Positions 12,873 to 31,138 of a stretch of DNA of 31,138 nucleotides are shown piece by piece. Each line of letters starts with the position of its first letter. The first letter of the stretch is position 1. The notes below the pieces were generated by a model that searched no databases, was not told where the DNA came from, and worked only from the letters and a program-made list of their open reading frames with translations. This DNA is from a virus (taxonomy: Duplodnaviria > Caudoviricetes): positions 1 through 31,138 of IMG/VR virus record IMGVR_UViG_3300027874_000027; one strand, 5' to 3'. The position numbers and the translations under genes are program-made.

Positions 12873-13526
12873 TCAGTTCGTCGTCTTCTCGAAAAGCCCC
12901 ATGTCCCAGCCGCCCTTCACGCGGTTCGCGTTCATCTTCTTCACAAATTGCCAGCCGCTGCGGCGCCCGCTCATCAGACCAAGCTCTGCGACTGCGCCCA
13001 TCACGTCGAGACCTGTCGGGCAGTGCGGCTGATAGTGCCCACGCTGATCTTCATCGAAGTCGTGAAACATGATGATCGAGTTCTTCTGCATGAACGCTTC
13101 AAGCGCGAGAAAGTCGAGCATCACGCATGGCTTGCCATGACAACCGTCGATCATTGCGAACTGAATCGGCGCTTGCCACAACTCAGTCAAGAAGCTCTGC
13201 GAGTCTTTGAAATAAACAGTCACCGCAGACCACGCTGGGTGCACGATCGCGCCGTTCGGTGAGACGAAGTTGAGCGTGACGTCGCGTGCTTTCGCCCAGT
13301 CGATCGTCTTCTGACGGTCGAACGAGTAACCGTTCGGCAGCTCGACGCCAATCGCGCGCCACTGCTTGCCGCTCTCTTTGAGCGTTGACGCGATCGCACT
13401 CAGAGTCGCGCCTTCACCGACACCGATCTCGATGTAAGTGACGCTGTTGAAGCGCTGCGTGATCTCGCGCGCGCACTCGATGATCTGATCTTCAATTCCG
13501 CCCATACCAAAGCCCATTTGCATCAT
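12873..13526 (-). CDS. Class I SAM-dependent methyltransferase (Methyltransf_24-like)
   Basis: YIEIGVGEG (motif I), IDGCH and IMFHD. Confidence 0.82.
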   Translation of the reverse strand: MMQMGFGMGGIEDQIIECAREITQRFNSVTYIEIGVGEGATLSAIASTLKESGKQWRAIGVELPNGYSFDRQKTIDWAKARDVTLNFVSPNGAIVHPAWSAVTVYFKDSQSFLTELWQAPIQFAMIDGCHGKPCVMLDFLALEAFMQKNSIIMFHDFDEDQRGHYQPHCPTGLDVMGAVAELGLMSGRRSGWQFVKKMNANRVKGGWDMGLFEKTTN

Positions 13527-14359
13527 GTTAAGTCTCCGACAAGTGTTGCTGCTTCTTCTTGCTCAAGCTGCGCGAGCGCGAAGCCCGCCACCTCTTCAGG
13601 CAGCGTGCGATACAGCTCAAGACATCCAACTTCACACGACGCGCGAAAGTTCGGGCGCAAACAATGACAGCCCGCGCAGTCGAGCGCTTTCTTTCGATAG
13701 CTGATCACTTCAGGAATGTGCGCGTAGATGCGCTCAGTCGTTGCGCCTTGAATCGCGATCGTCTTCGTGCCAATCGTGCCCGCGAGGTGGGCGGGTCCGC
13801 TGTCATTGCCGATCACCAAGCGCGCACTCTGCATCGCAGCGGCGATGTAGTTCCAGTTCTGCCCGACGATGCAGTGAAACGGCATGAAGAACGCGTAGTC
13901 ACGCTGCTCAGTCACGACTTTCACGCTGTAGCCAGCGTCACGCAGAATCAGACCAAGCTCGACAAAGTAGTTGCGCGGCCACGTTCTCACGGGCGAATAC
14001 GACGACGGAAAGATGAGCACTTCTGCGCTGTCGCGACGACCCATCTCGCGATCCATCGGCACGAGATTGAGTCTCGGACGTTTCGGCTGTGCGGTGACGC
14101 CGAGGTGGTACGCCATCCACTGCAAGTATGAGAGCGGCGAGTCGTTCTTCACTGCTGTCTCGTAGCCTTGATGCGTGAGTCTCGCGCCGGTCGGGTCGTT
14201 CGTGACACTCAGTTGAAACATCTTGAGCATCTCGGCTCTCCAGTCGGTGGCAAAGAACTCGATGTCATCGCCTGCGGCGACGCAGCCCTCGCCGAGCCAC
14301 GCGAAGCAGACGATGTCACCAACGCCTTTGAACCAGCCATTGTATGTGTCGATCTTCAT
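13523..14359 (-). CDS. Glycosyltransferase family 9 (heptosyltransferase-like)
   Basis: GVGDIV at the N-terminus, RTWP, IGNDSGPAHLAG and C-terminal CxxC...C. Confidence 0.88.
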   Translation of the reverse strand: MKIDTYNGWFKGVGDIVCFAWLGEGCVAAGDDIEFFATDWRAEMLKMFQLSVTNDPTGARLTHQGYETAVKNDSPLSYLQWMAYHLGVTAQPKRPRLNLVPMDREMGRRDSAEVLIFPSSYSPVRTWPRNYFVELGLILRDAGYSVKVVTEQRDYAFFMPFHCIVGQNWNYIAAAMQSARLVIGNDSGPAHLAGTIGTKTIAIQGATTERIYAHIPEVISYRKKALDCAGCHCLRPNFRASCEVGCLELYRTLPEEVAGFALAQLEQEEAATLVGDLT

Positions 14360-21735: not shown

Positions 21736-22010
21736 TCGTTCGCAGCAGCAGCAGTGAGCTTGTCACGGCGCAATCGCTCACTACGCACAGTGCGCGGCTC
21801 GCCGCGCAAATTGCCACGCTGCTTGTCGATCTCGCGCTGACACTCGCGGCAGAACCACGAGCGCGCGCTCACGAAGAGCGTCGTCGAGATTTTTTCGCCG
21901 TTGTGCAGCGGACCCTTGCACGCGCGCACGTAGTCGGGCAGCTCCGGTCGTTCTCTCTTTGTGTTGCTGAAGTCGAATTGGTATTGCTTTGGTTTTTTTG
22001 TTTTCATCAT
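21732..22010 (-). CDS. Hypothetical protein, possible zinc finger
   Basis: CKGPLH...FCRECQ; coupled within the operon. Confidence 0.65.
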   Translation of the reverse strand: MMKTKKPKQYQFDFSNTKRERPELPDYVRACKGPLHNGEKISTTLFVSARSWFCRECQREIDKQRGNLRGEPRTVRSERLRRDKLTAAAANE

Positions 22011-22924
22011 CTTGGCTTTTGAAAGATCAGCGCATACTCGTGCCGCTTCGGCAGCAGCTTGCGCTCAAAAATCTGATTGACGAACGCGGCCGCGATTGAC
22101 GAACCGAGGTCGATGATCGCGATGTCGTGCTGCACGAAGCCAGCCTTGTTCATCAGCCTGATGACGTCGCTGTGATACGAACGAAAGATACCGTCGAAGC
22201 GAAAGTCGTTCACGCACCAGACGCAGAAGCGACCGCTCTTGAGCACGCGCAAGTTTTCTTTCATCACGTCGAACAGTCGATCAAGGAAATGCTGATACGA
22301 GCGCGCGTTGTTGCCAAGCTGCTCGGGCTCGTCGCCGTAATGTTCGAGACAGTAGTAGGGTGGGCTCGTGATCGTGAAGTCACCGATGCCGCTGTCCCAC
22401 GGCAGCTTGCGCGAGTCACCCGTCGTCAAGCGCACGATCGGCGCTTCTTCGCTCGATTGAAACATGTCGCTCTTGCGCTCTTCGTGCAGCACTTCGAGCA
22501 CGCGCGCGTTCGCAGCTTGGAACTTCGCGCTGATGTCGTTGCCCCAGTAACTGCGACCGGCGCGAAAGCAGAGTTCGAGTCGTGAGTTGTGTCCAGCGAA
22601 AGGATCGACCACTCGATCACCTGCTTTCGTGTAGAGCAGCAGCAGCGCGCGCCCTACGTTCTGCGGGAAGCGCGAGAGACCAGCACCCTCACCGCGACAC
22701 GTGCGCGAACTGACACCGAAGACTTTACCGAGCGCGCTCGTTGAGTCATAAGCGCCATAGTCAGCTGTGTTCTCGTAAGATCGCTCGTTCTCGACGATGA
22801 GATCGAGCGCCATTGTCTTCTTGTCGTAGCGCAAGATTGACGTCGGTGCTTCGCCGCCGTAGTCGCGCAGGTTTTTCTCGCGCATCTCGCGCGACTCAAT
22901 CAAGTCTTCAACTGTTTTGCCCAT
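22007..22924 (-). CDS. DNA amino-methyltransferase (N4-C/N6-A family)
   Basis: DPFAG (SAM-binding) precedes TSPPY (catalytic); C-terminal HEYALIFQK. Confidence 0.88.
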   Translation of the reverse strand: MGKTVEDLIESREMREKNLRDYGGEAPTSILRYDKKTMALDLIVENERSYENTADYGAYDSTSALGKVFGVSSRTCRGEGAGLSRFPQNVGRALLLLYTKAGDRVVDPFAGHNSRLELCFRAGRSYWGNDISAKFQAANARVLEVLHEERKSDMFQSSEEAPIVRLTTGDSRKLPWDSGIGDFTITSPPYYCLEHYGDEPEQLGNNARSYQHFLDRLFDVMKENLRVLKSGRFCVWCVNDFRFDGIFRSYHSDVIRLMNKAGFVQHDIAIIDLGSSIAAAFVNQIFERKLLPKRHEYALIFQKPR

Positions 22925-23583: not shown

Positions 23584-24452
23584 AGCTTGCTCGCTTTCTT
23601 TTCGCGATATTCTTGCAATCTGCGTCGAGATGCGTTCATCTCAGCTTCGATGCGATCGTCGTCGTGCGCGCTCGGCGCCGTGCGCGACATCGGACGCTCA
23701 GCGCGGTTCAACCAGTTGATGAAGCGACGTCGAGAAGCAGTCTTGTTGTTCGCTTTGCACCAGTTCAGCATCTTGCCGTGCTCGCGCACAACGTCGAGCC
23801 CGTTGTAGGTCTTGTCTTGAGCGAGTGATCTCAACCACTCATCATCACTGACGCTGGTCGCGCTTGCGCGCGACGATTTGCCCAATGTCTTGGTTATCTT
23901 TGCTTCTGCTTCTGCTTCTGCTTGCGTGACGTCACGTGACTGTTCGCCTCCGTCACGCGTGACACCGTCAACATCACGCCGTGACGAAACTGATGATGTT
24001 GACGATTGTTGACGTTTGCTGATGCCAGCTTTCTTGCGCGCACGATAACGTGCTTGGCGTTCTGCTGCCGTGTAGTCGCGATCGCGGTACTTGAAATAAT
24101 TCAGAACGACGAAGCCGCCGTCAACGCGAACGAGTCGTCGCCCATCAAAGTCAGCAGTGCGCGACCCTGCTTCAGGGCTGCCGAGCTGTTCCATCGCATC
24201 GAGACCCGCTTCTTGATCGTCGATCATCGCGCGTCGAATAATCCCGACGCTCGCTGCGGGCACGAACCCGTACCAGCCGGGCGGGACTTTCCAGCCCGTC
24301 TTTTTCATCGAGCGAATCTCGATCTGCTCTTGCGCTTCAGCGAACTCTCGCGGCTCTGCCATCAAAAGCGCGGTCAGAAAAATCTCACGGCACATGCGCT
24401 CAAACCAGAGAGTCGAGTTCAAGATGTTCGTGTCGAGCTTGACGAAAGGCAT
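23580..24452 (-). CDS. Phage replication initiator / replisome organizer
   Basis: N-terminal FVKLDTNILNSTLW domain, LNYFKYR...AERQARYRARKK, a low-complexity linker with DNA repeats, and C-terminal FINWLNRA. Confidence 0.78.
   Translation of the reverse strand: MPFVKLDTNILNSTLWFERMCREIFLTALLMAEPREFAEAQEQIEIRSMKKTGWKVPPGWYGFVPAASVGIIRRAMIDDQEAGLDAMEQLGSPEAGSRTADFDGRRLVRVDGGFVVLNYFKYRDRDYTAAERQARYRARKKAGISKRQQSSTSSVSSRRDVDGVTRDGGEQSRDVTQAEAEAEAKITKTLGKSSRASATSVSDDEWLRSLAQDKTYNGLDVVREHGKMLNWCKANNKTASRRRFINWLNRAERPMSRTAPSAHDDDRIEAEMNASRRRLQEYREKKASKL
23901..23985. repeat. Iteron-like GTCAC/GTGAC palindrome cluster (candidate replication origin)
   Basis: cgtgacgtcacg, gtcacgtgac, gtcacgcgtgac and tcacgccgtga, next to (tgcttc)3, inside the initiator linker. 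Confidence 0.55.
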
Positions 24453-24454
24453 CG

Positions 24455-24539
24455 CGCTGTCACGCTGTCACGCTGTGACATTGCAGTCAACAAAAAAATC
24501 AATTCGACATCTACAAAGTGTTCGCTGATACTGTTCGCT
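24455..24539. promoter_or_regulatory. Divergent promoter region
   Basis: Rightward TCGACA(24504)-17-GATACT-9 nt-ATG. Leftward TTGACT(24490)-17-CAGCGT-9 nt-ATG. (CGCTGTCA)x3-like repeat at 24455-24478; TGTTCGCT at 24519 and 24532. Confidence 0.6.
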
Positions 24540-24541
24540 AT

Positions 24542-25108
24542 ATGACTAAAACATTGCAGAAAAATGGACAAAGCAAGATCGTCGCGCGACCGCTCACAAC
24601 GCTCGTGCCACTGATCAAGGAAACACTCGCCGACGCATACGAAGCGGGTCTCGACTACTACATCAAGATCGGCGGCATGCTGCACGAAGCGAAAGCACAA
24701 GTTGAACTCGGGAAGTGGAAAAATTGGCTCGCGCAAAACTTCCACCTCTCAGCTTCAACGGCGAGCAATTACATGATGGCGTTCAACAAGCGACGATCTC
24801 GATCGTCGTTCAGAACAGCGTCTGAAGCGTGGCGGCCGAACGCAAGCGCGCATCATCAGCCCGCGTGGCAATCGACCGTCAAAGATCGCGTCGCGCAAGC
24901 GCGCAAGCAGTCACAGATTTTTGAGCGTGACGAACTCTCGCGCAAACAAGAAAGCGACGCGCTGCAGAAGCTCGCGCATCGTCTGATCGACATCGGCTAC
25001 AAAGTGCTCAGCATCGAGCTGCACCCGGACAAGGGTGGTTCGCACGAAGCGATGTTGCGCTTGAACGAAGTGCGCACTCACCTGCGCTCAGCAGTGGAGG
25101 ACTTATGA
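24542..25108 (+). CDS. DUF3102-like protein with C-terminal J-domain-like HPD motif
   Basis: IGGMLHEAKAQVELGKWKNWL...TASNYM and LHPDKGGSHEAMLRLNE. Confidence 0.75.
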   Translation: MTKTLQKNGQSKIVARPLTTLVPLIKETLADAYEAGLDYYIKIGGMLHEAKAQVELGKWKNWLAQNFHLSASTASNYMMAFNKRRSRSSFRTASEAWRPNASAHHQPAWQSTVKDRVAQARKQSQIFERDELSRKQESDALQKLAHRLIDIGYKVLSIELHPDKGGSHEAMLRLNEVRTHLRSAVEDL

Positions 25109-25602
25109 GCCTCGCGAAACAGCGCAGAAAAGAATTGAAGAACAGACAGCTCGCGAGAGTTGAAGCGAAGCTCGTCAAAGTCGCTGGGCGTCTGATCTCG
25201 AACAAAGTCGGGCGCTACCAGCACAAGATCACGCGCGACATGATCGAGCTGTCGCGTCACGGCAACGGCGTGACGACGATCAAAGCGATCGCGCTCGCGC
25301 AGTTCGGCTCAGCCCGTCGCGATCAGCAAGCATACGTGCGCAAGCGCAGCAGCGAAGTCGTCAACGAACTGCTGCGCAGCGGCGTGCTGTGTTACCCTGA
25401 GTTCGAGGTCGCGGGCTATCACCGACTCAAGGCGATCAAGTTCTATCTCGGCGACAGCGAAGACAAGATTCAATTGCCGCTCTACTTGAAGCGGATGCTC
25501 GATCGCAAACAGATCAGCGCGCACAAATATGATGGCTTGATCGAGCTGCAGAAACACATCGACGACAACAACGAAGAGAACTCACATGAAACACGAAACT
25601 GA
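25105..25602 (+). CDS. Hypothetical protein
   Basis: 165 aa, GGAGG SD, ATGA overlap. Confidence 0.75.
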   Translation: MSLAKQRRKELKNRQLARVEAKLVKVAGRLISNKVGRYQHKITRDMIELSRHGNGVTTIKAIALAQFGSARRDQQAYVRKRSSEVVNELLRSGVLCYPEFEVAGYHRLKAIKFYLGDSEDKIQLPLYLKRMLDRKQISAHKYDGLIELQKHIDDNNEENSHETRN

Positions 25603-25738
25603 ACAAGAGATCATTCGACGCGCGATGTCGATCATGGGCTCGCGCAAAAGCGCGCGCAAGACGCGCGCGTGCCGAGCGAACGCGAAGCGTCCGCGCAAGC
25701 GCAAAAAGCACGTCTCGCGCAAGCGCGTCCCTTCGTAA
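25586..25738 (+). CDS. Small, very basic putative DNA-binding protein (50 aa; not in the ORF track)
   Basis: Manual translation MKHETEQEIIRRAMSIMGSRKSARKTRACRANAKRPRKRKKHVSRKRVPS*. Confidence 0.65.
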   Translation: MKHETEQEIIRRAMSIMGSRKSARKTRACRANAKRPRKRKKHVSRKRVPS

Positions 25739-25761
25739 AGTGCTCATTTTGAGCACTTTAC
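25735..25761. repeat. Perfect 12-bp inverted repeat (terminator or protein-binding site)
   Basis: gtaaagtgctca-ttt-tgagcactttac. Confidence 0.7.
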
Positions 25762-25789
25762 AAGGCTGAAAAATAGTTGAAAAAAGATG

Positions 25790-25818
25790 TTGCAGCGATC
25801 TGTTCGCTATATTAGGAT
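25790..25818 (+). promoter_or_regulatory. sigma70-like promoter for a leaderless transcript, with operator
   Basis: TTGCAG-17-TAGGAT-6 nt-ATG(25825). Operator AGCGATC-T-GTTCGCT at 25794-25808. Confidence 0.72.
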
Positions 25819-25824
25819 GTGTGC

Positions 25825-26169
25825 ATGTCAAACACAACTCAATCAGTAACGGTTGCGGGCAATGCGCCGCGATTCACAGCAAATGAAATCAAAGTCTTGA
25901 AGGCGCTTCATGCGTCGATGCAAGGCAACGGCTTCGACTTCGGCTTCGTTGATGAAGCGACCAACGTCGAGGGCTTGAGCAAAGCATCAGCGGGCGCAGT
26001 GCTGCGCGAAGTGCGCAAGAAAGTGCGCATCACGACTTGGGACCCAGTCACGACTGACTCGGGCACTTACACGCAGATCACTGCGTCGTTGCCTGATGAT
26101 GGCGTCGGCTACGAGTCACTGAAGAACTTTCACGTGTGGCTGCGTCTGATCGACAAAGCTGCGAAGTGA
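25825..26169 (+). CDS. Hypothetical protein (possible winged helix); carries internal motif copy A
   Basis: MSNTTQSVTVAGNAPR... Confidence 0.75.
   Translation: MSNTTQSVTVAGNAPRFTANEIKVLKALHASMQGNGFDFGFVDEATNVEGLSKASAGAVLREVRKKVRITTWDPVTTDSGTYTQITASLPDDGVGYESLKNFHVWLRLIDKAAK
25845..25872 (+). repeat. AGUNAYGG + bulged hairpin motif, copy A
   Basis: agtaacgg ttgcgg gc aat gc g ccgcga. Confidence 0.8.
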
Positions 26170-26258
26170 TCAACTGTCTGCTCGCGCGCGTCGCGAGCAG
26201 CAAGATGAACACAACATCAGAAAGAACAGCAGTCATGGGCGTGAGCATTGCGTCACGC
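26166..26258 (+). repeat. Two-hairpin gene-start element, copy B
   Basis: gtgatcaactgt ctgctcgcg-cgcgt-cgcgagcag caag ATG ... agtcatgg gcgtga gc att gc g tcacgc. Confidence 0.92.
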
Positions 26259-26381
26259 GATTATTCAGAGCTGGACAACTTCAGCGCGCGCTTCAACAGA
26301 GCGATCGACATCGTCGTTGCGATCGTTGATCGCTTCGTCATCACGCCGCTGATCGGAGGAGGTGAAGCGAGTGACTACTAA
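26205..26381 (+). CDS. Hypothetical protein (58 aa)
   Basis: MNTTSERTAVMGVSIASR...; start defined by the repeat element. Confidence 0.65.
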   Translation: MNTTSERTAVMGVSIASRDYSELDNFSARFNRAIDIVVAIVDRFVITPLIGGGEASDY

Positions 26382-26625
26382 GAACAAGCGCGTGCACATC
26401 TCGAACCGCGTGCGCTTCGGCGTCTATTGGCGCAGAATCGGCACGACGCAGTGGTTCGGGCGCTCGAACTACGCGACTGAAGAAGCTGCGCTGCAGCACT
26501 TCATCGAGTTCGGCAAGCCCGACTCACTCGGCTTCGTGAGCATCGCTGCTGACGATTACGAAGTGATCATCGAGCGTCTTGAGATCAAAGCGACACAACT
26601 GAAGCACAAAATCATCAGAGCTTAG
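26371..26625 (+). CDS. Hypothetical protein
   Basis: GTG 26371 preceded by GGAGGAGG. Confidence 0.7.
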   Translation: MTTKNKRVHISNRVRFGVYWRRIGTTQWFGRSNYATEEAALQHFIEFGKPDSLGFVSIAADDYEVIIERLEIKATQLKHKIIRA

Positions 26626-26712
26626 TGTTCGACAGTCTGCGCGTTCGTGAGAGCGCGCAGCATGATGAGCACAAAACCAAACGAAGTAATGGGCGAGAGC
26701 ACAGCGTCTCGC
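26625..26712 (+). repeat. Two-hairpin gene-start element, copy C
   Basis: gtgttcgacagt ctgcgcgttc-gtga-gagcgcgcag catg ATG ... agtaatgg gcgaga gc aca gc g tctcgc. Confidence 0.9.
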
Positions 26713-27027
26713 AACGGCATTTACAACAATTACGAGAACGTGAAAAAACTGATCGCGCGAATCTGCGACAACAGATTGCCCGGGCTGCAGCTGTCGGTCG
26801 ACCCGATGTGCGGCACGCTCGAAGTCAGCAAGCGCGGCAGCGGGTTCGCAATTCTCGCGACTCCGTTCTGGGAAGATGAACGAAAGCTGCCCGTGCAGAT
26901 CATCACGGAAGCTGGCGATGACGTGCTTGCGTGCGATGTGCACGTCGCGTGGACGCAAGACATCGAGCGCGATGCGCAGCTCTGGGAGAACGCAATCAAA
27001 CCGTTCGTGAGCTTCTACCTGCAGTGA
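26665..27027 (+). CDS. Hypothetical protein
   Basis: MSTKPNEVMGESTASR...ATPFWE. Confidence 0.72.
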   Translation: MSTKPNEVMGESTASRNGIYNNYENVKKLIARICDNRLPGLQLSVDPMCGTLEVSKRGSGFAILATPFWEDERKLPVQIITEAGDDVLACDVHVAWTQDIERDAQLWENAIKPFVSFYLQ

Positions 27028-27117
27028 TCAACTGTCTGTGCTCGCACTGTCGAGCACAGCAAGATGAGCACAAAAAAGCAGAAGACAGCAGTAACGGGCG
27101 GGGGCACAGCGCCTCGC
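27024..27117 (+). repeat. Two-hairpin gene-start element, copy D
   Basis: gtgatcaactgt ctgtgctcg-cactgt-cgagcacag caag ATG ... agtaacgg gcgggg gc aca gc g cctcgc. Confidence 0.92.
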
Positions 27118-27441
27118 ATGACAGTGAGTGAGCAGATTGAAGTCTCGATGCGCGCGCGTCTGCACGCGATCAAGACTGCGTGCGACCTCGTCGTCGCGAG
27201 CAGCACGAACGAAGGGCTCGTGAAGTTCGCGCTCTTGATCGCTGAGAAGACGGGCATCGTCGCTGAACCGCTTGAGATCATCGTCGCACGTCAATCATCA
27301 AGCAGCATGAGCGAACGCTTCGCGATCTACGCGAACGGCAAACTGATCGAGGGCGGCTTCTTCTCGCGCGCATACGCTGAAGCATGGGCGCAGAAGTACC
27401 GCGACGGCAAGTTCAGCATCCCGAAAGGTGGTGCGCGATGA
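27064..27441 (+). CDS. Hypothetical protein
   Basis: MSTKKQKTAVTGGGTAPR... Confidence 0.72.
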   Translation: MSTKKQKTAVTGGGTAPRMTVSEQIEVSMRARLHAIKTACDLVVASSTNEGLVKFALLIAEKTGIVAEPLEIIVARQSSSSMSERFAIYANGKLIEGGFFSRAYAEAWAQKYRDGKFSIPKGGAR

Positions 27442-27632
27442 ACGACGACATCACAACGCGCGGCAAGACTGCGCATGATCGCGCGATCTGCTCGATCTGC
27501 GGGCGTCCTTACAAAGATCACGGACACAACGCGCAACCGATCAACAACGGGCGCTGCTGCGACACGTGCAACACGAACATCGTCGTGCCGCGTCGCATCG
27601 AGAACATGAAGCGCGCGAAGGAGGCACGATGA
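27438..27632 (+). CDS. Small zinc-binding phage protein
   Basis: CSICG...GHNAQP...GRCCDTCN...VVPRR. SD-like AAAGGTGG and ATGA overlap. Confidence 0.8.
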   Translation: MNDDITTRGKTAHDRAICSICGRPYKDHGHNAQPINNGRCCDTCNTNIVVPRRIENMKRAKEAR

Positions 27633-28597
27633 ACATCGTCACGTTCAACGAACCGTTCGAGCACGCGATCGCTGCATGGACTGCCGGTCAGCCTGAGCTT
27701 CGAGCAGTTGCTGAAGTGTCGTCGCTGCCGTTCAAGAACTGGCAGACGTCACCGCTCTTCAACTACGCGACGCTGCGCGAGAAAGAGCAGAAGCTGATCA
27801 AGTCGATGCTTGAGTCTGACTTCAAGCTCGAAACGTGCCCGTGGCCGTTCGAGACGTTCAGGCTCTCAATGGTCGAGCGCGCGAACGAGAAGTGGGACGA
27901 CCCGCTCTATCCTGGTCAGAAGTTCGGCGGCGGTCACTACCGCGCTGACTTCGTTGTCACCCGTCACAACGAGCACATCTACATGCTTGCGAACGTGATT
28001 CGACTCTTCGATGAAACGCCGCAGACGCTCGCGATCGCGCGCAAGCACGCACCGATGATCGTCTACATCGGCGACGTCTTCACGACGCTCGACAACCCTG
28101 ATCAGTACCAATACAAGCACGCGATCTTCAGCGCCGGGCGCTGGTTCTTCGACATCGAGAGCACGACGCTCTTCACGATCGACTGCGGTCTGATGGACTC
28201 GCTCGCTGGCTTCATTCTCGATTCGATTGCACCGAACAATCGCGTCGCTGAAGTGCGCCCAGCAGTGAACGGGCACACGTCAGTCGAGTGGGTCAAAGCG
28301 CGCACGCACTACACGCTGATCACGCACGATCACCCGGCGAACTCGAAAGACGTCGCTGAGCGCGCGCGCGTCAATCAGGGCAGCGCTGACGAGCAGATGA
28401 AGCGCATGGCGCACGCGCGTCGCGCACACTTCAAGACGCTCAAGCATCCGCGCTACCGCTTCGCGCTGAACGAGCAGCGCTTCGCACATCTGCCGAAGGG
28501 CACGATCTTCGTCAAGCAAGCGTGGGTCGGACCCAAAGAATGGATGGACGAAGGCGGACGTCAAATCTACAAGATACTCGAACCGATCGACGAGTGA
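27629..28597 (+). CDS. Hypothetical phage protein with C-terminal HxRRxH...WVG motif
   Basis: AAGGAGG SD; HARRAHFK...VKQAWVG. Confidence 0.8.
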   Translation: MNIVTFNEPFEHAIAAWTAGQPELRAVAEVSSLPFKNWQTSPLFNYATLREKEQKLIKSMLESDFKLETCPWPFETFRLSMVERANEKWDDPLYPGQKFGGGHYRADFVVTRHNEHIYMLANVIRLFDETPQTLAIARKHAPMIVYIGDVFTTLDNPDQYQYKHAIFSAGRWFFDIESTTLFTIDCGLMDSLAGFILDSIAPNNRVAEVRPAVNGHTSVEWVKARTHYTLITHDHPANSKDVAERARVNQGSADEQMKRMAHARRAHFKTLKHPRYRFALNEQRFAHLPKGTIFVKQAWVGPKEWMDEGGRQIYKILEPIDE

Positions 28598-28604
28598 AAA
28601 TCGA

Positions 28605-28662
28605 CTGTGCATATCTTGCTGAACATGTTCAGCTGAACAGCACAAGATATGCACAGCTTTTT
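28605..28662 (+). terminator. Long inverted repeat with nested palindromes and T tract (terminator or operator)
   Basis: ctgtgcatatcttg (28605-18) / caagatatgcacag (28643-56) followed by cttttt. Confidence 0.55.
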
Positions 28663-28674
28663 CTTGAAATAATG

Positions 28675-28703
28675 TTGCAGAGCGAACAGTTCGATGAGAG
28701 GAT
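28675..28703 (+). promoter_or_regulatory. sigma70-like promoter for a leaderless transcript, with operator
   Basis: TTGCAG-17-GAGGAT-6 nt-ATG(28710). Operator AGCGAAC-A-GTTCGAT at 28681-28695. Confidence 0.7.
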
Positions 28704-28709
28704 GGCAGC

Positions 28710-28994
28710 ATGTCGAACACAACTCAAAACAACAACGAAGTCAGCGCGACGACTGAGCAAGATCGCGCAATCGCGCGTGCAGCAACGATCAACCACTGGA
28801 GCAAGCAGATCGCTGCGCGCACGAACTATCAGCAATACAAAATCTCACATCTTCAGCTGCAGAAACTTCTCGAAGTCGTGCACTGCGGCGGCGCGCGCAC
28901 GCTCGAACACGTCGCGGGTCTCGTGAACACGAACCTCTTCATCGAGCGCATCGCGCAGAACACATTCAGAATCGAACTGCGCAACAACATCTAG
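28710..28994 (+). CDS. Hypothetical protein
   Basis: MSNTTQ N-terminus is identical to that of the 25825 gene. Confidence 0.72.
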   Translation: MSNTTQNNNEVSATTEQDRAIARAATINHWSKQIAARTNYQQYKISHLQLQKLLEVVHCGGARTLEHVAGLVNTNLFIERIAQNTFRIELRNNI

Positions 28995-28997
28995 TTC

Positions 28998-29084
28998 GTG
29001 ATCAGCTGTCTGCGCACTCGCTGAGTGCGCAGCAAGATGAGCACAACAACACAAGCAGTCATGGGCGCGAGCACAGTGTCGCGC
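28998..29084 (+). repeat. Two-hairpin gene-start element, copy E
   Basis: gtgatcagctgt ctgcgcactc-gct-gagtgcgcag caag ATG ... agtcatgg gcgcga gc aca gt g tcgcgc. Confidence 0.92.
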
Positions 29085-29642
29085 TTCGGCAACTCTTCAA
29101 CAACGATGACCGCCAAGTTCGCAGGCACGTGCGTCGGCTGTCATCAGCGCATTCACGTCGGCGATCAGATCGAGTGGTCGCGCGGCGCTGGTGCGCGTCA
29201 CGTGCACTGCCCTGAAGTCAGTGAGACGCAGAGCGACGCGATCGCGTTCATCAGCTCTGAGCGCACGCGCGAGCGCACGATCTCGATCAGCCCGGGCGTG
29301 TTTCGCAAAGACGGGCGCATCTATGTCGTCAAGCAGACGCGCAAAGACAGCGCGAACCCTGACGCACCGCGCCGTCTCTACGCGAAAGAGATCATCGAGA
29401 GCGCAAAGCGCATCACTGAAGACGGCGAGCAAGCTGACTTCGAGAGCGTGTATGCGCGCGGCGTCGTCTATGATCTCACTGAAGCTGATCGCTGGGACTG
29501 GGCAGACGCGAGCGCGTTCTTGACGAAGTATGCGCGCTGCATCGTCTGCAACGCGCACTTGAAAGCAGCGAAGAGCGTCGCGGGCGCGATCGGACCCGTC
29601 TGTGCGAAGTATTTCAAGCACAAGCACGCAGAAGCAGCGTAA
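29037..29642 (+). CDS. Protein with two zinc-binding modules (C-terminal DUF6011-like)
   Basis: AKFAGTCVGC...HVHC and CIVCNAHL...SVAGAIGPVC. Confidence 0.78.
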   Translation: MSTTTQAVMGASTVSRFGNSSTTMTAKFAGTCVGCHQRIHVGDQIEWSRGAGARHVHCPEVSETQSDAIAFISSERTRERTISISPGVFRKDGRIYVVKQTRKDSANPDAPRRLYAKEIIESAKRITEDGEQADFESVYARGVVYDLTEADRWDWADASAFLTKYARCIVCNAHLKAAKSVAGAIGPVCAKYFKHKHAEAA

Positions 29643-29739
29643 ATGTTCGACGACACTGTCGCTCGCGCAAGCGGGCGGCAGCACGATGAACATGAACAAC
29701 AAAGCAGCAGCAGTGATGGGCGAGGGCATTGCGCCTCGC
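29643..29739 (+). repeat. Two-hairpin gene-start element, copy F
   Basis: atgttcgacgaca ctgtcgctcgc-gcaa-gcgggcggcag cacg ATG ... agtgatgg gcgagg gc att gc g cctcgc. Confidence 0.9.
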
Positions 29740-29925
29740 AGCAGCAAGCGACCAGCGATCGTGAGCGATGAGCATCTTCGCTTTCTCGACGCTCTGCGCG
29801 AGAGCGGCGCGACGAACATGTTCGGCGCGGGTCCGTATCTCGTCGAGCAGTTCAACGTCACGCGCTCTGAATCGCACACGATTCTCGGCTACTGGATGAA
29901 GAGCTTCGGAAAGGAGACGCGATGA
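29686..29925 (+). CDS. Small phage protein (LRESGxTNMFGA family)
   Basis: FLDALRESGATNMFGAGPYL...WMKSF, preceded by the shared leader. Confidence 0.8.
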   Translation: MNMNNKAAAVMGEGIAPRSSKRPAIVSDEHLRFLDALRESGATNMFGAGPYLVEQFNVTRSESHTILGYWMKSFGKETR

Positions 29926-30248
29926 CGAACGAACAAATCGAAGAAGCATCACGTCAGCACTTCTATTGGTTCGCGAAAGCGGTCACTGCGCTCGACAAGA
30001 TGCGCGTGCTCGCGCTCGACATGACGCAGCAGCACACTGACGCGTTCGCGAAAGCACAGCAAGAGTTCAAAGAAGCGAGCGGGCGCTGCAAGGTCGAGTT
30101 CGAGATCATGCAGAAAGGCATGATCGCGCAGATCGAGCAGCAGCTCGCGAAAGATGATCCGATTCAGCGCTTGCTTGACGGCGGCGGCGAAGGCGGCTCG
30201 ACCGATTGTCTGTTCGACGACGAGAGCAACGATGAAGAAGTTTCCTAA
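29922..30248 (+). CDS. Hypothetical coiled-coil protein
   Basis: AAAGGAG SD, ATGA overlap. Confidence 0.75.
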   Translation: MTNEQIEEASRQHFYWFAKAVTALDKMRVLALDMTQQHTDAFAKAQQEFKEASGRCKVEFEIMQKGMIAQIEQQLAKDDPIQRLLDGGGEGGSTDCLFDDESNDEEVS

Positions 30249-30654
30249 TGCGAGCGAAGCGTTCAAAGCCCTTAACGCTGGTCTTGGACTATCGCGTCCC
30301 GTCACTCAATCGAGTGCTCAAGCGTCACTGGGCGATCGTGCATCGCGAAAAGCGTCGCGTGCTGCTCGCACTCGGCTCAGCTATTGCGCGAGCCTTGTGC
30401 GACCGCTCGACCCCGACAACTTGGCTGGCTCGACTAAATACTGCACAGACGCGCTTGTGCGCAGCGGTCTGCTTCATGGGGATTCGCCAGAGCAGATCGA
30501 GATCGTCTGGTCGCAGAAAAAGGTCGCTCACTTTGATGAGGAAAAGCTCACTATCACAATTTCAGGCTGCGCAGACATCGCAGCTGAAGTCGGAGCAGCG
30601 GCAACCGATGAAAGCGCCGCAGAACAAAGCAAACAGAAAGAAAAAATAACATGA
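30232..30654 (+). CDS. rusA: RusA-like Holliday junction resolvase, catalytic half
   Basis: RPLDPDNLAGSTKYCTDAL...LLHGD matches the RusA D-x-D-N...K...D pattern. Confidence 0.7.
   Translation: MKKFPNASEAFKALNAGLGLSRPVTQSSAQASLGDRASRKASRAARTRLSYCASLVRPLDPDNLAGSTKYCTDALVRSGLLHGDSPEQIEIVWSQKKVAHFDEEKLTITISGCADIAAEVGAAATDESAAEQSKQKEKIT
30248..30649 (+). CDS. Overlapping ORF carrying a RusA-like N-terminal segment
   Basis: TAATG-coupled start. LTLVLDYRVPSLNRVLKRHW...REK resembles the RusA N-terminal PSxN...HW...K segment. Confidence 0.55.
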   Translation: MRAKRSKPLTLVLDYRVPSLNRVLKRHWAIVHREKRRVLLALGSAIARALCDRSTPTTWLARLNTAQTRLCAAVCFMGIRQSRSRSSGRRKRSLTLMRKSSLSQFQAAQTSQLKSEQRQPMKAPQNKANRKKK

Positions 30655-31138
30655 TCAAAGGAATCACTCTGCCAGCGCTTGCTGAGCAGATCAAACGAGA
30701 ACACGGCGAGAAGAAAGACTTCATCGCGCCGACGACGCAGCTGCGCTACGAAGCGAAAGGCGAGCGCGGCTCGATCGGCTTCGCGATGAACGACAACGAC
30801 TGGGTCGAGACCGAACCGACCGAGCATTGTCTCGCGCAAATATGTCAGCGATCAGGAATTCCCAAGCCCTACGCCGACAGAATGCGCGGAGACAACCTCG
30901 AATTGCTCGCTCACAACGTTAATTGGTGGTGGCAGCACAAGTCAGAGAAGCGCATGTTGCGCACGCTTGTCAATGGCGAGCATCGCGCACGCGCGTTCGT
31001 GAGCGAGCGCTATCGCCCGCTCGACAACTACGATCTCGCAAAGGTCGTGCTTCCGCGTCTCGCGAAAGCTGGGTGTGAAGTTCTCTCGTGTCAGATCACT
31101 GAAACGAGACTCTACATTCAAGCAGCGACGCCGGAGAT
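30651..31138 (+). CDS. DUF932-like phage protein, 3'-truncated (not in the ORF track)
   Basis: Manual translation MIKGITLPALAEQIKRE...GIPKPYADRM...MLRTL...RARAFVSERYRPLDNYDL..., open to the window end. Confidence 0.8.
   Translation, partial: MIKGITLPALAEQIKREHGEKKDFIAPTTQLRYEAKGERGSIGFAMNDNDWVETEPTEHCLAQICQRSGIPKPYADRMRGDNLELLAHNVNWWWQHKSEKRMLRTLVNGEHRARAFVSERYRPLDNYDLAKVVLPRLAKAGCEVLSCQITETRLYIQAATPE

Follow-up and report, generated by a model that had tools for sequence, protein, structure and literature searches.

The 31,138-nucleotide (nt) stretch of tailed-phage DNA analysed here, positions 1 to 31,138 of IMG/VR record IMGVR_UViG_3300027874_000027 (the window), carries at five of its gene junctions a hairpin, termed H1, that is predicted to hold the start codon of the downstream gene. 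Judged from sequence comparison, H1 is a real, conserved RNA element, and it is most likely a site for the host RNase III of the type used by phage T7. We think it probable that RNase III cutting at H1 punctuates the early transcript into near-leaderless messenger RNAs (mRNAs) with a 5'-monophosphate. An earlier reading of the DNA made without database searches (the sequence-only reading) had proposed that the hairpin replaces a promoter through cleavage of the T7 RNase III kind. That part of the proposal finds support in the predicted structure, in the sequence preferences of RNase III and in gene swaps among relatives; the cut, which had been placed at the stem base, is now predicted in an internal loop, with one base before the AUG as its commonest position.

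All five elements lie where they had been reported (Table 1). The reported pattern has five matches in the window and none in 100 dinucleotide shuffles, and a structure-only descriptor applied to the + strand of the early gene block described below finds five, where 40 shuffles average 0.18 and never exceed 1. The string CAG-CANG-ATG occurs on the + strand at these sites only. H1 is larger than first reported, with a predicted fold of an irregular ~22-bp hairpin whose lower stem includes the start codon. The RTGWTCR stretch, described before as a spacer, is in fact the 5' arm of this lower stem, which spans nine positions and pairs RTGWTCRRC with GATGARCAC/T, start codon included (z -2.6 to -5.3). 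An internal loop of 3x3 or 4x3 separates it from upper stems of 9, 10, 9, 10 and 11 contiguous pairs across the five copies, with loops of GUGA at 26625 and GCAA at 29643. Rfam returned five weak matches for window positions 24400-31138, all far under the gathering score and none to a ribozyme, and 0 matches for 10 related loci.

Outside the window the pairing of H1 is kept while its sequence is not. Copies were gathered with descriptors and curated by eye, giving a total of 24 from 11 lineages (the window's and 10 others), 11 with the second hairpin H2 described below and 13 without it; L044, whose five elements are identical, was counted as the window's lineage. Upper stems remain paired as CTG/CAG is swapped for CCG/CGG, GCA/TGC and others, and the 4-nt spacer before the AUG differs from CANG in most relatives. 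Upper-stem loops range from 3 to 13 nt with unrelated sequences; those of four bases are GNRA or UNCG in 8/8. The sense strand gives the more stable fold in 17 of the 24 copies. In the sole blind test, a strict descriptor run on 438 kb fetched by terminase similarity found one new copy (L294), which has U.G at -11; the expectation was 0.35 false matches over 404 qualifying ATGs in the terminase-fetched set plus H2-fetched records. The more distant terminase relatives showed neither H1 nor H2, so the element is confined to part of the family, and three records (G005, G006 and G007) have H2 and no convincing H1.

Three other searches were set aside. The exact window pattern had two matches in viral contigs, both lacking a hairpin and attributed to chance; a pattern of the lower stem only gave 73 distinct viral matches, one with an upper stem, which was a copy already known; and a loose H1 descriptor, run on phage records in full, returned mainly noise, so the strict one was used instead. 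Among individual copies, a near-identical relative (L052 963), compared with window 29686, has GAAA for GCAA (still GNRA) and an H2 stem that is different yet fully paired. G001 holds a tandem H1 pair ~60 nt apart (L014 6933-7070). H1 also precedes very short open reading frames of 19 codons (L044:1284, - strand) and 16 codons (L013:17848, + strand), whose stop overlaps the next ATG (ATGA); these may be leaderless mini-cistrons that pass ribosomes on to the gene behind them.

The position of the hairpin relative to the AUG is conserved and many early genes have no known family match, as might be expected if another activity, a phage-encoded or Cas6-like nuclease or self-cleavage, processed the RNA. 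We regard this as very unlikely, as the stem sequence and loop vary freely among relatives, CTG/CAG included, no Rfam ribozyme matches, and H1 and H2 occur independently (H2 accompanies 11/24 H1 copies). A Cas6-type repeat is defined by a conserved stem sequence and has no lower stem. H1 was rejected as such a repeat, and the Cas6-like processing suggested earlier is not supported. Cas6-like and self-cleaving activities usually leave a 5'-OH. That end would be disfavoured by leaderless translation (PMC9031893; published sources are cited by PMC accession, here and below).

Unrelated genes share, at the repeats, an in-frame N-terminal module, a pattern that resembles shuffling and would suit a repeat that acts as DNA, whether as a recombination site swapping early genes or as a phage-specific or cruciform promoter with CANGAT as its -10 box, the latter being another suggestion of the sequence-only reading. 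Such a role appears highly improbable. TTG occupies the -35 slot in 0/5 window copies and 2/22 overall, and CANG is not kept in most relatives. A -10 box at CANGAT would start transcription past the AUG, and the in-frame codon that comes next, at H2, is ATG in only 7/33 and ACG in 26/33. The stability of the sense strand and the RNA-type tetraloops also argue against a DNA role, as does the absence of any RNA polymerase family among the 35 window proteins. A sigma-70 promoter or a phage hairpin promoter was rejected likewise, given no -35/-10 boxes at H1 and hairpin loops of varied length and unrelated sequence. Recombination between H1 copies may occur as a by-product.

The starts of the H1-led genes are unusual. 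As reported, none of the five has a Shine-Dalgarno (SD) sequence: their duplex energies are -2.2 to -5.8 kcal/mol, compared with -8.0 to -17.3 kcal/mol for genes 26371, 27438, 27629 and 29922. The further claim that genes without the element have an SD is borne out by those four and contradicted by early genes 30248 and 30651, which have neither and adjoin an upstream stop codon. The first 18 bases of all five H1-led genes include 14-16 A or C. Leaderless initiation requires a 5' phosphate and prefers an AUG near the end, and CA repeats enhance it (PMC9031893); the products of RNase III carry a 5' phosphate (PMC1540722). Homologues of gene 26205 (42% identity) and gene 29037 (48%) are the first genes behind promoter-like sites in G001 and G005, respectively. 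Two genes are thus H1-led in the window and promoter-led in relatives, which fits H1 as a promoter substitute.

For comparison with known RNase III sites, the T7 early region was fetched, and R0.3, R0.5 and R1.1 were found by motif and folded. In all three, an upper stem of ~10 bp is followed by three unpaired bases and by a G-A-U whose pairs are C-G, A.A and R-U. R1.1 is cut at nucleotide 5887 (PMC8708148). In our fold this cut falls directly 5' of that G. The cuts of R0.3 and R0.5 presumably lie at the same place, to judge from the shared motif. H1 resembles the T7 sites in being a hairpin between early genes with an upper stem of about this length, a small internal loop, a predicted cut before G-A-U, C-G/A.A/R-U below the cut and a G 11 bases before it. 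The +1 pair is C-G in 19/23 H1 copies, +2 is a mismatch in 15/23 (A.A in 10) and +3 is A-U or G.U. The copy at 26625 matches R1.1 exactly in its U.G, U-A, C-G and GNRA loop at equal distance from the cut. Applied to H1, the T7 register therefore predicts a cut that leaves G-AUG, a 1-nt leader. The systems differ in that T7 is cut 28-119 nt before the next annotated start, so that a leader remains, whereas in H1 the G-A-U runs on as the start codon G-AUG; and, unlike those of T7, the H1 upper stems are GC-rich with C-G beside the loop.

The sequence preferences of RNase III can be followed along the H1 stem. A site needs quasi-continuous duplex over roughly two helical turns (~22 bp), and the E. 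coli enzyme prefers, in the proximal box, G-C at position 1 and A-U/U-A at position 2 (PMC1540722). All five window copies reach this length, with 9 + 3 + 9-11 positions. At the T7 register CTG/CAG becomes a proximal box with G-C at position 1 and U-A at position 2, and the upper half fits in 5/5 window copies; over all copies, position 2 of the upper half is A-U/U-A in 12/23 and G-C/C-G in 10/23. The lower half has no G-C at position 2 in 23/23, a consequence of the AUG. Targets of the E. coli and B. subtilis enzymes favour G and U.G 11 bases before the cut (PMC6212723, PMC11780869). In H1, this distal-box U.G at -11 is present in 11 of 22 foldable copies, from 8 of the 11 lineages, compared with 9/176 at other stem positions, and the mirror position on the 5' arm, J', is G in 20/23. 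Neither the U.G at -11 nor the G at J' played any part in picking the copies.

The fit was then scored with a pair-count matrix from 85 E. coli in vivo targets (PMC6212723, Supplementary Table S4). The truncated copy in L029 was left out, which gave 23 scored H1 copies, and a 4x3 loop was scored minus one base. On this E. coli matrix, which may not suit the host, the range is -23.7 to -26.9 for the window copies and -28.7 to -29.3 for the T7 sites. By the thresholds of the same source, 20/23 copies are at or above the loose value of -33.8 and 5/23 at or above the strict value of -25.5 (PMC6212723). Sliding the matrix recovered the expected cut in all three T7 controls. The best cut in H1 falls 1 nt before the AUG in 11/23 (4/5 in the window) and 3-4 nt before it in 10/23, hence 1-4 nt before it in 21/23, and inside the gene in the other 2/23. 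When the pair order of 22 fully paired upper stems was permuted, 0 of 10,000 permutations reached the observed fit; for subsets the numbers were 25 with the window alone, 0 with the other lineages, and 0, 1 and 6 in three draws of one copy per lineage.

Several observations weigh against RNase III cutting that leaves near-leaderless mRNAs. The 4-nt spacing to the AUG and the lower-stem pairing (+3/+4) were built into the H1 descriptors and are not independent evidence. At -4, position 3 of the proximal box, the pair is C-G/G-C in 23/23, where the E. coli in vitro optimum is A-U; such pairs occur there in 26/85 of the E. coli in vivo targets (PMC6212723, Table S4), so A-U is an optimum and not a requirement. 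At -5, G-C/C-G, an E. coli antideterminant, is found in 10/23, but U-A in 5/5 window copies, and the frequent C-G at +1 is away from the E. coli optimum. A register two bases upstream scores nearly equal on average (-4.8 vs -4.3). The G at -11 is weak by itself, as G is also found in 19/24 at -7 and at -9 in these GC-alternating stems. The permutation signal may owe something to the absence of G.U beside the internal loop, for which general helix stability may be an alternative cause, and E. coli rules might not hold for the host of this phage. At the gene starts, the homologue of 29037 in G006 begins at a stop-start overlap, lacks the N-terminal module and starts near an internal ATG of the window gene, so that ATG 29037 is a putative start. 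The predicted accessibility of the AUG after the cut rises in 3/5 copies, falls in another and does not change in the fifth, although the first 15 bases are predicted to open in 5/5, and SD-led starts are predicted to be paired as well. Finally, the upstream stop codon touches the H1 lower arm in 5/5 window copies.

This last arrangement would also suit translational coupling without cleavage, in which a ribosome at the upstream stop melts the lower stem, the upper hairpin bridges and reinitiation follows at the AUG. The stop overlaps the lower arm or lies <=3 nt from it in the window copies and is near it in most relatives, the AUG is predicted to be paired in uncut RNA, and five H2 genes with neither H1 nor a promoter start 1-9 nt after a stop, so these phages do use coupling. 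As an explanation of H1 it is nevertheless unlikely. Coupling leaves the position-specific U.G, the G 11 bases from the predicted cuts and the matrix fit unexplained; at least 3 of the 19 copies outside the window (L013:15655, L014:6994, L095:1676) have ~26-29 nt between the end of the longest upstream frame and the lower arm; and plain stop-start overlaps already do the job here (30248 and the G006 homologue). Coupling and cleavage could act together.

The same RNase III signature would be expected if the enzyme recognised H1 to another end, either binding without a cut and thereby remodelling the start, which has been reported for lambda cIII, or cutting to no more effect than to segment and age the transcripts or to silence the downstream gene. 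With a G-C/C-G pair beside the scissile bond, binding need not lead to cleavage (PMC1540722), and the common +1 C-G of H1 could be read in this way. However, T7 sites share this C-G at +1 and R1.1 is cut, the predicted cut spares the AUG in 21/23 copies, and the genes concerned have no SD to fall back on and have homologues that are leaderless behind promoters. A role of RNase III other than in making leaderless messages is accordingly one that we hold to be quite improbable.

RNase III cleavage into near-leaderless mRNAs remains the reading that we prefer, and from the models above we infer the fold in vivo, the RNase III cut, its exact position and translation of the product as follows. H1 would fold in the polycistronic early RNA with the start codon inside the lower stem. 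Host RNase III would cut the internal loop, most likely leaving a 1-nt leader and at most 4 nt, and cleavage would give separate near-leaderless mRNAs with a 5'-monophosphate, standing in for promoter and ribosome-binding site. The 70S ribosome would translate the cut mRNA without an SD, the A/C-rich first codons would enhance leaderless initiation, and the upper hairpin, left on the upstream mRNA, would cap its 3' end, as happens in T7.

The second conserved hairpin, H2, lies 25-35 nt after the A of all five H1-led starts and of the start of gene 25825. It consists of AGTNAYGG, a variable 6-bp stem and a GCAHWGYG loop that can be folded as two pairs, a triloop and a bulged G. A pattern blind to H1, with the three inner pairs left free, matched 47 metagenome and 13 genome stretches, and the pairing test left out the window's lineage, duplicates and 3 truncated matches. 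The free inner pairs are perfect in 18/22 matches preceded by A-rich sequence, as opposed to 3/19 others (Fisher p=3e-5). The 13 matches in species genomes were rejected, none having a perfect stem behind an A-rich in-frame start. In 33 aligned copies, which were chosen for good stems, 99.6% of cells pair and two-sided changes occur at 5/8 pairs, and the covariation measures were reached by 0-2 of 500 shuffles. The H2 peptide varies as pairing dictates, which argues that selection acts on the RNA. H2 has no Rfam match.

Outside the window's lineage there are 26 distinct H2 genes. In 25 of them the motif follows an in-frame start at a distance of 18-27 nt, and the other is cut off. Upstream of the 26 starts, a promoter-like TT(G/T) box at -37 to -30 is found in 13 (7 of these also with A at -11 and T at -7) and H1 in 6; 2 are truncated, and the remaining 5 are those that begin just after a stop codon. 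Among the 24 with visible upstream DNA the box and H1 never occur together. H2 therefore follows promoter-made, coupled and H1-led starts alike. A scan with an H2 model added 7 copies at E<1e-3 and found none in late genes; two of the 7 (L013 14913-14943 and L030 162-193, each ~120-130 nt after another H2) have no ATG/GTG start where one would be expected. H2 lies just past the region covered by an initiating ribosome. Our guess is that H2 is a separate module, a protein- or ribosome-binding element that may aid or protect SD-less 5' ends; it could possibly be a translational operator or a nut-like antitermination site, but no + strand terminator was called in the early block.

The window belongs to a tailed phage with terminase, Mu-like portal, protease-capsid, tail and tape-measure genes, all on the - strand; the virus record is single, its completeness is rated 100%, and the portal is <28% identical to those of cultured phages. 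From 24518 a + strand block of small genes follows, mostly without an assigned family, and from their position and size we infer that these are early genes. This block contains two promoter-like sites, P1 and P2, in which TTGCAG, 17 nt and (T/G)AGGAT are followed 6 nt later by the ATG of genes 25825 and 28710. These first genes, both predicted to be leaderless, lack H1, as the sequence-only reading had noted; 25825 nevertheless carries H2, and 28710 does not. P1 was passed over by a strict sigma-70 scan. A long hairpin followed by a U-rich run precedes P2 and likely marks the end of the first early transcription unit, although the terminator scan made no call there or anywhere on the + strand of the early block.

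Other features were observed around these sites. A different hairpin stands in gene 28710 (28746-28773) at the distance from the start at which H2 is found elsewhere, and a hairpin of -21.1 kcal/mol is located at 25730-25767, just 5' of P1. Both promoter spacers hold a near-palindrome (25796-25807 and 28682-28693) in opposite orientation with 11/12 bases alike, and a word resembling it is also intergenic in G001 (L014 6908-6919); it is a possible operator. Among the head genes on the - strand are a methyltransferase (PF13578) and a family 9 glycosyltransferase (12873-14359 and 22007-22924), and upstream of the terminase is an N6/N4 DNA methylase gene. In G007, a run of GAGACA repeats lies within a putative replication gene (L011 7240-7292). 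No RNase III gene was found in phage records G000, G001, G006 and G008, while a control genome matched, so the enzyme would be the host's. A search for the host among 401 Verrucomicrobiota and 301 Acidobacteriota genomes sampled gave no terminase match at E<=1e-60.

Table 1. Positions in the window of the H1 and H2 copies and of the predicted transcription signals of the early block
Feature	Positions	Strand	Details
H1 copy 1	26166..26212	+	lower arm 26166-26174; upper hairpin 26178-26200; predicted cut between 26203 and 26204; ATG 26205
H1 copy 2	26625..26672	+	upper hairpin 26637-26660; predicted cut between 26663 and 26664; ATG 26665
H1 copy 3	27024..27071	+	upper hairpin 27036-27059; predicted cut between 27062 and 27063; ATG 27064
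H1 copy 4	28998..29044	+	upper hairpin 29010-29032; predicted cut between 29035 and 29036; ATG 29037 (DUF6011-like gene)
H1 copy 5	29643..29693	+	upper hairpin 29656-29681; 4x3 internal loop; predicted cut between 29684 and 29685; ATG 29686
H2, promoter-proximal gene 25825	25846..25872	+	pattern and H2 model
H2, gene 26205	26232..26258	+	pattern and H2 model
H2, gene 26665	26686..26712	+	pattern and H2 model
H2, gene 27064	27091..27117	+	pattern and H2 model
H2, gene 29037	29058..29084	+	pattern and H2 model
H2, gene 29686	29713..29739	+	pattern and H2 model
Promoter-like site P1 (TTGCAG, 17 nt, TAGGAT)	25790..25818	+	sequence and geometry table; 6 nt before ATG 25825
Promoter-like site P2 (TTGCAG, 17 nt, GAGGAT)	28675..28703	+	sequence and geometry table; 6 nt before ATG 28710
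Long hairpin, then U-rich run	28605..28665	+	fold -25.6 kcal/mol

Structured marks between genes are known from mitochondria, where tRNAs punctuate the transcript and a housekeeping nuclease releases near-leaderless mRNAs. Mitochondrial punctuation uses tRNAs with RNase P and RNase Z, whereas a tRNA search of the window found none. The RNase III processing of Bacillus phage SP82 is not known to give a leaderless product. The resemblance to the H1 proposal is that host RNase III processes early transcripts of this phage (PMC4838370). The nearest report to H1 is from S. aureus, in which RNase III shortens overlapping 5' untranslated regions (PMC3386247); it differs in that divergent genes supply the two strands of an intermolecular duplex, an SD was still present on the mapped product and no dedicated, repeated site holds the AUG. 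In E. coli, an endonucleolytic cut by MazF just before the AUG has been proposed to make leaderless mRNA, but MazF is a stress-linked cutter of single-stranded ACA and other laboratories did not reproduce the result (PMC9031893), whereas H1 is a structured, genome-encoded site. A search for RNase III together with leaderless phage mRNAs, in literature mostly outside subscription journals, surfaced no repeated RNase III site that contains a start codon.

H1 would represent a compact natural design: one housekeeping nuclease would both expose the start codon and provide the 5' phosphate on which leaderless initiation depends. As a part of ~50 nt it may also allow genes of a polycistron to be expressed without an SD. 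H2, which belongs to no Rfam family, is an RNA motif that covaries within coding sequence. If RNase III does cut at H1 as proposed, processing of the T7 type would be extended from trimming messages to making an initiation signal. A 2022 review asks if leaderless translation can be regulated per gene, and names MazF as the single processing route that had been proposed (PMC9031893). We tentatively suggest, as a possibility that falls somewhat short of an even chance, that H1 and H2 together form a portable gene-start cassette, with host RNase III, acting on a recognition stem that includes the start codon, as a stand-in for the promoter and H2 recruiting ribosomes or protecting the RNA. Such a cassette would do in bacterial phages what tRNA punctuation does in mitochondria, and would be the first switch to act on leaderless translation gene by gene.

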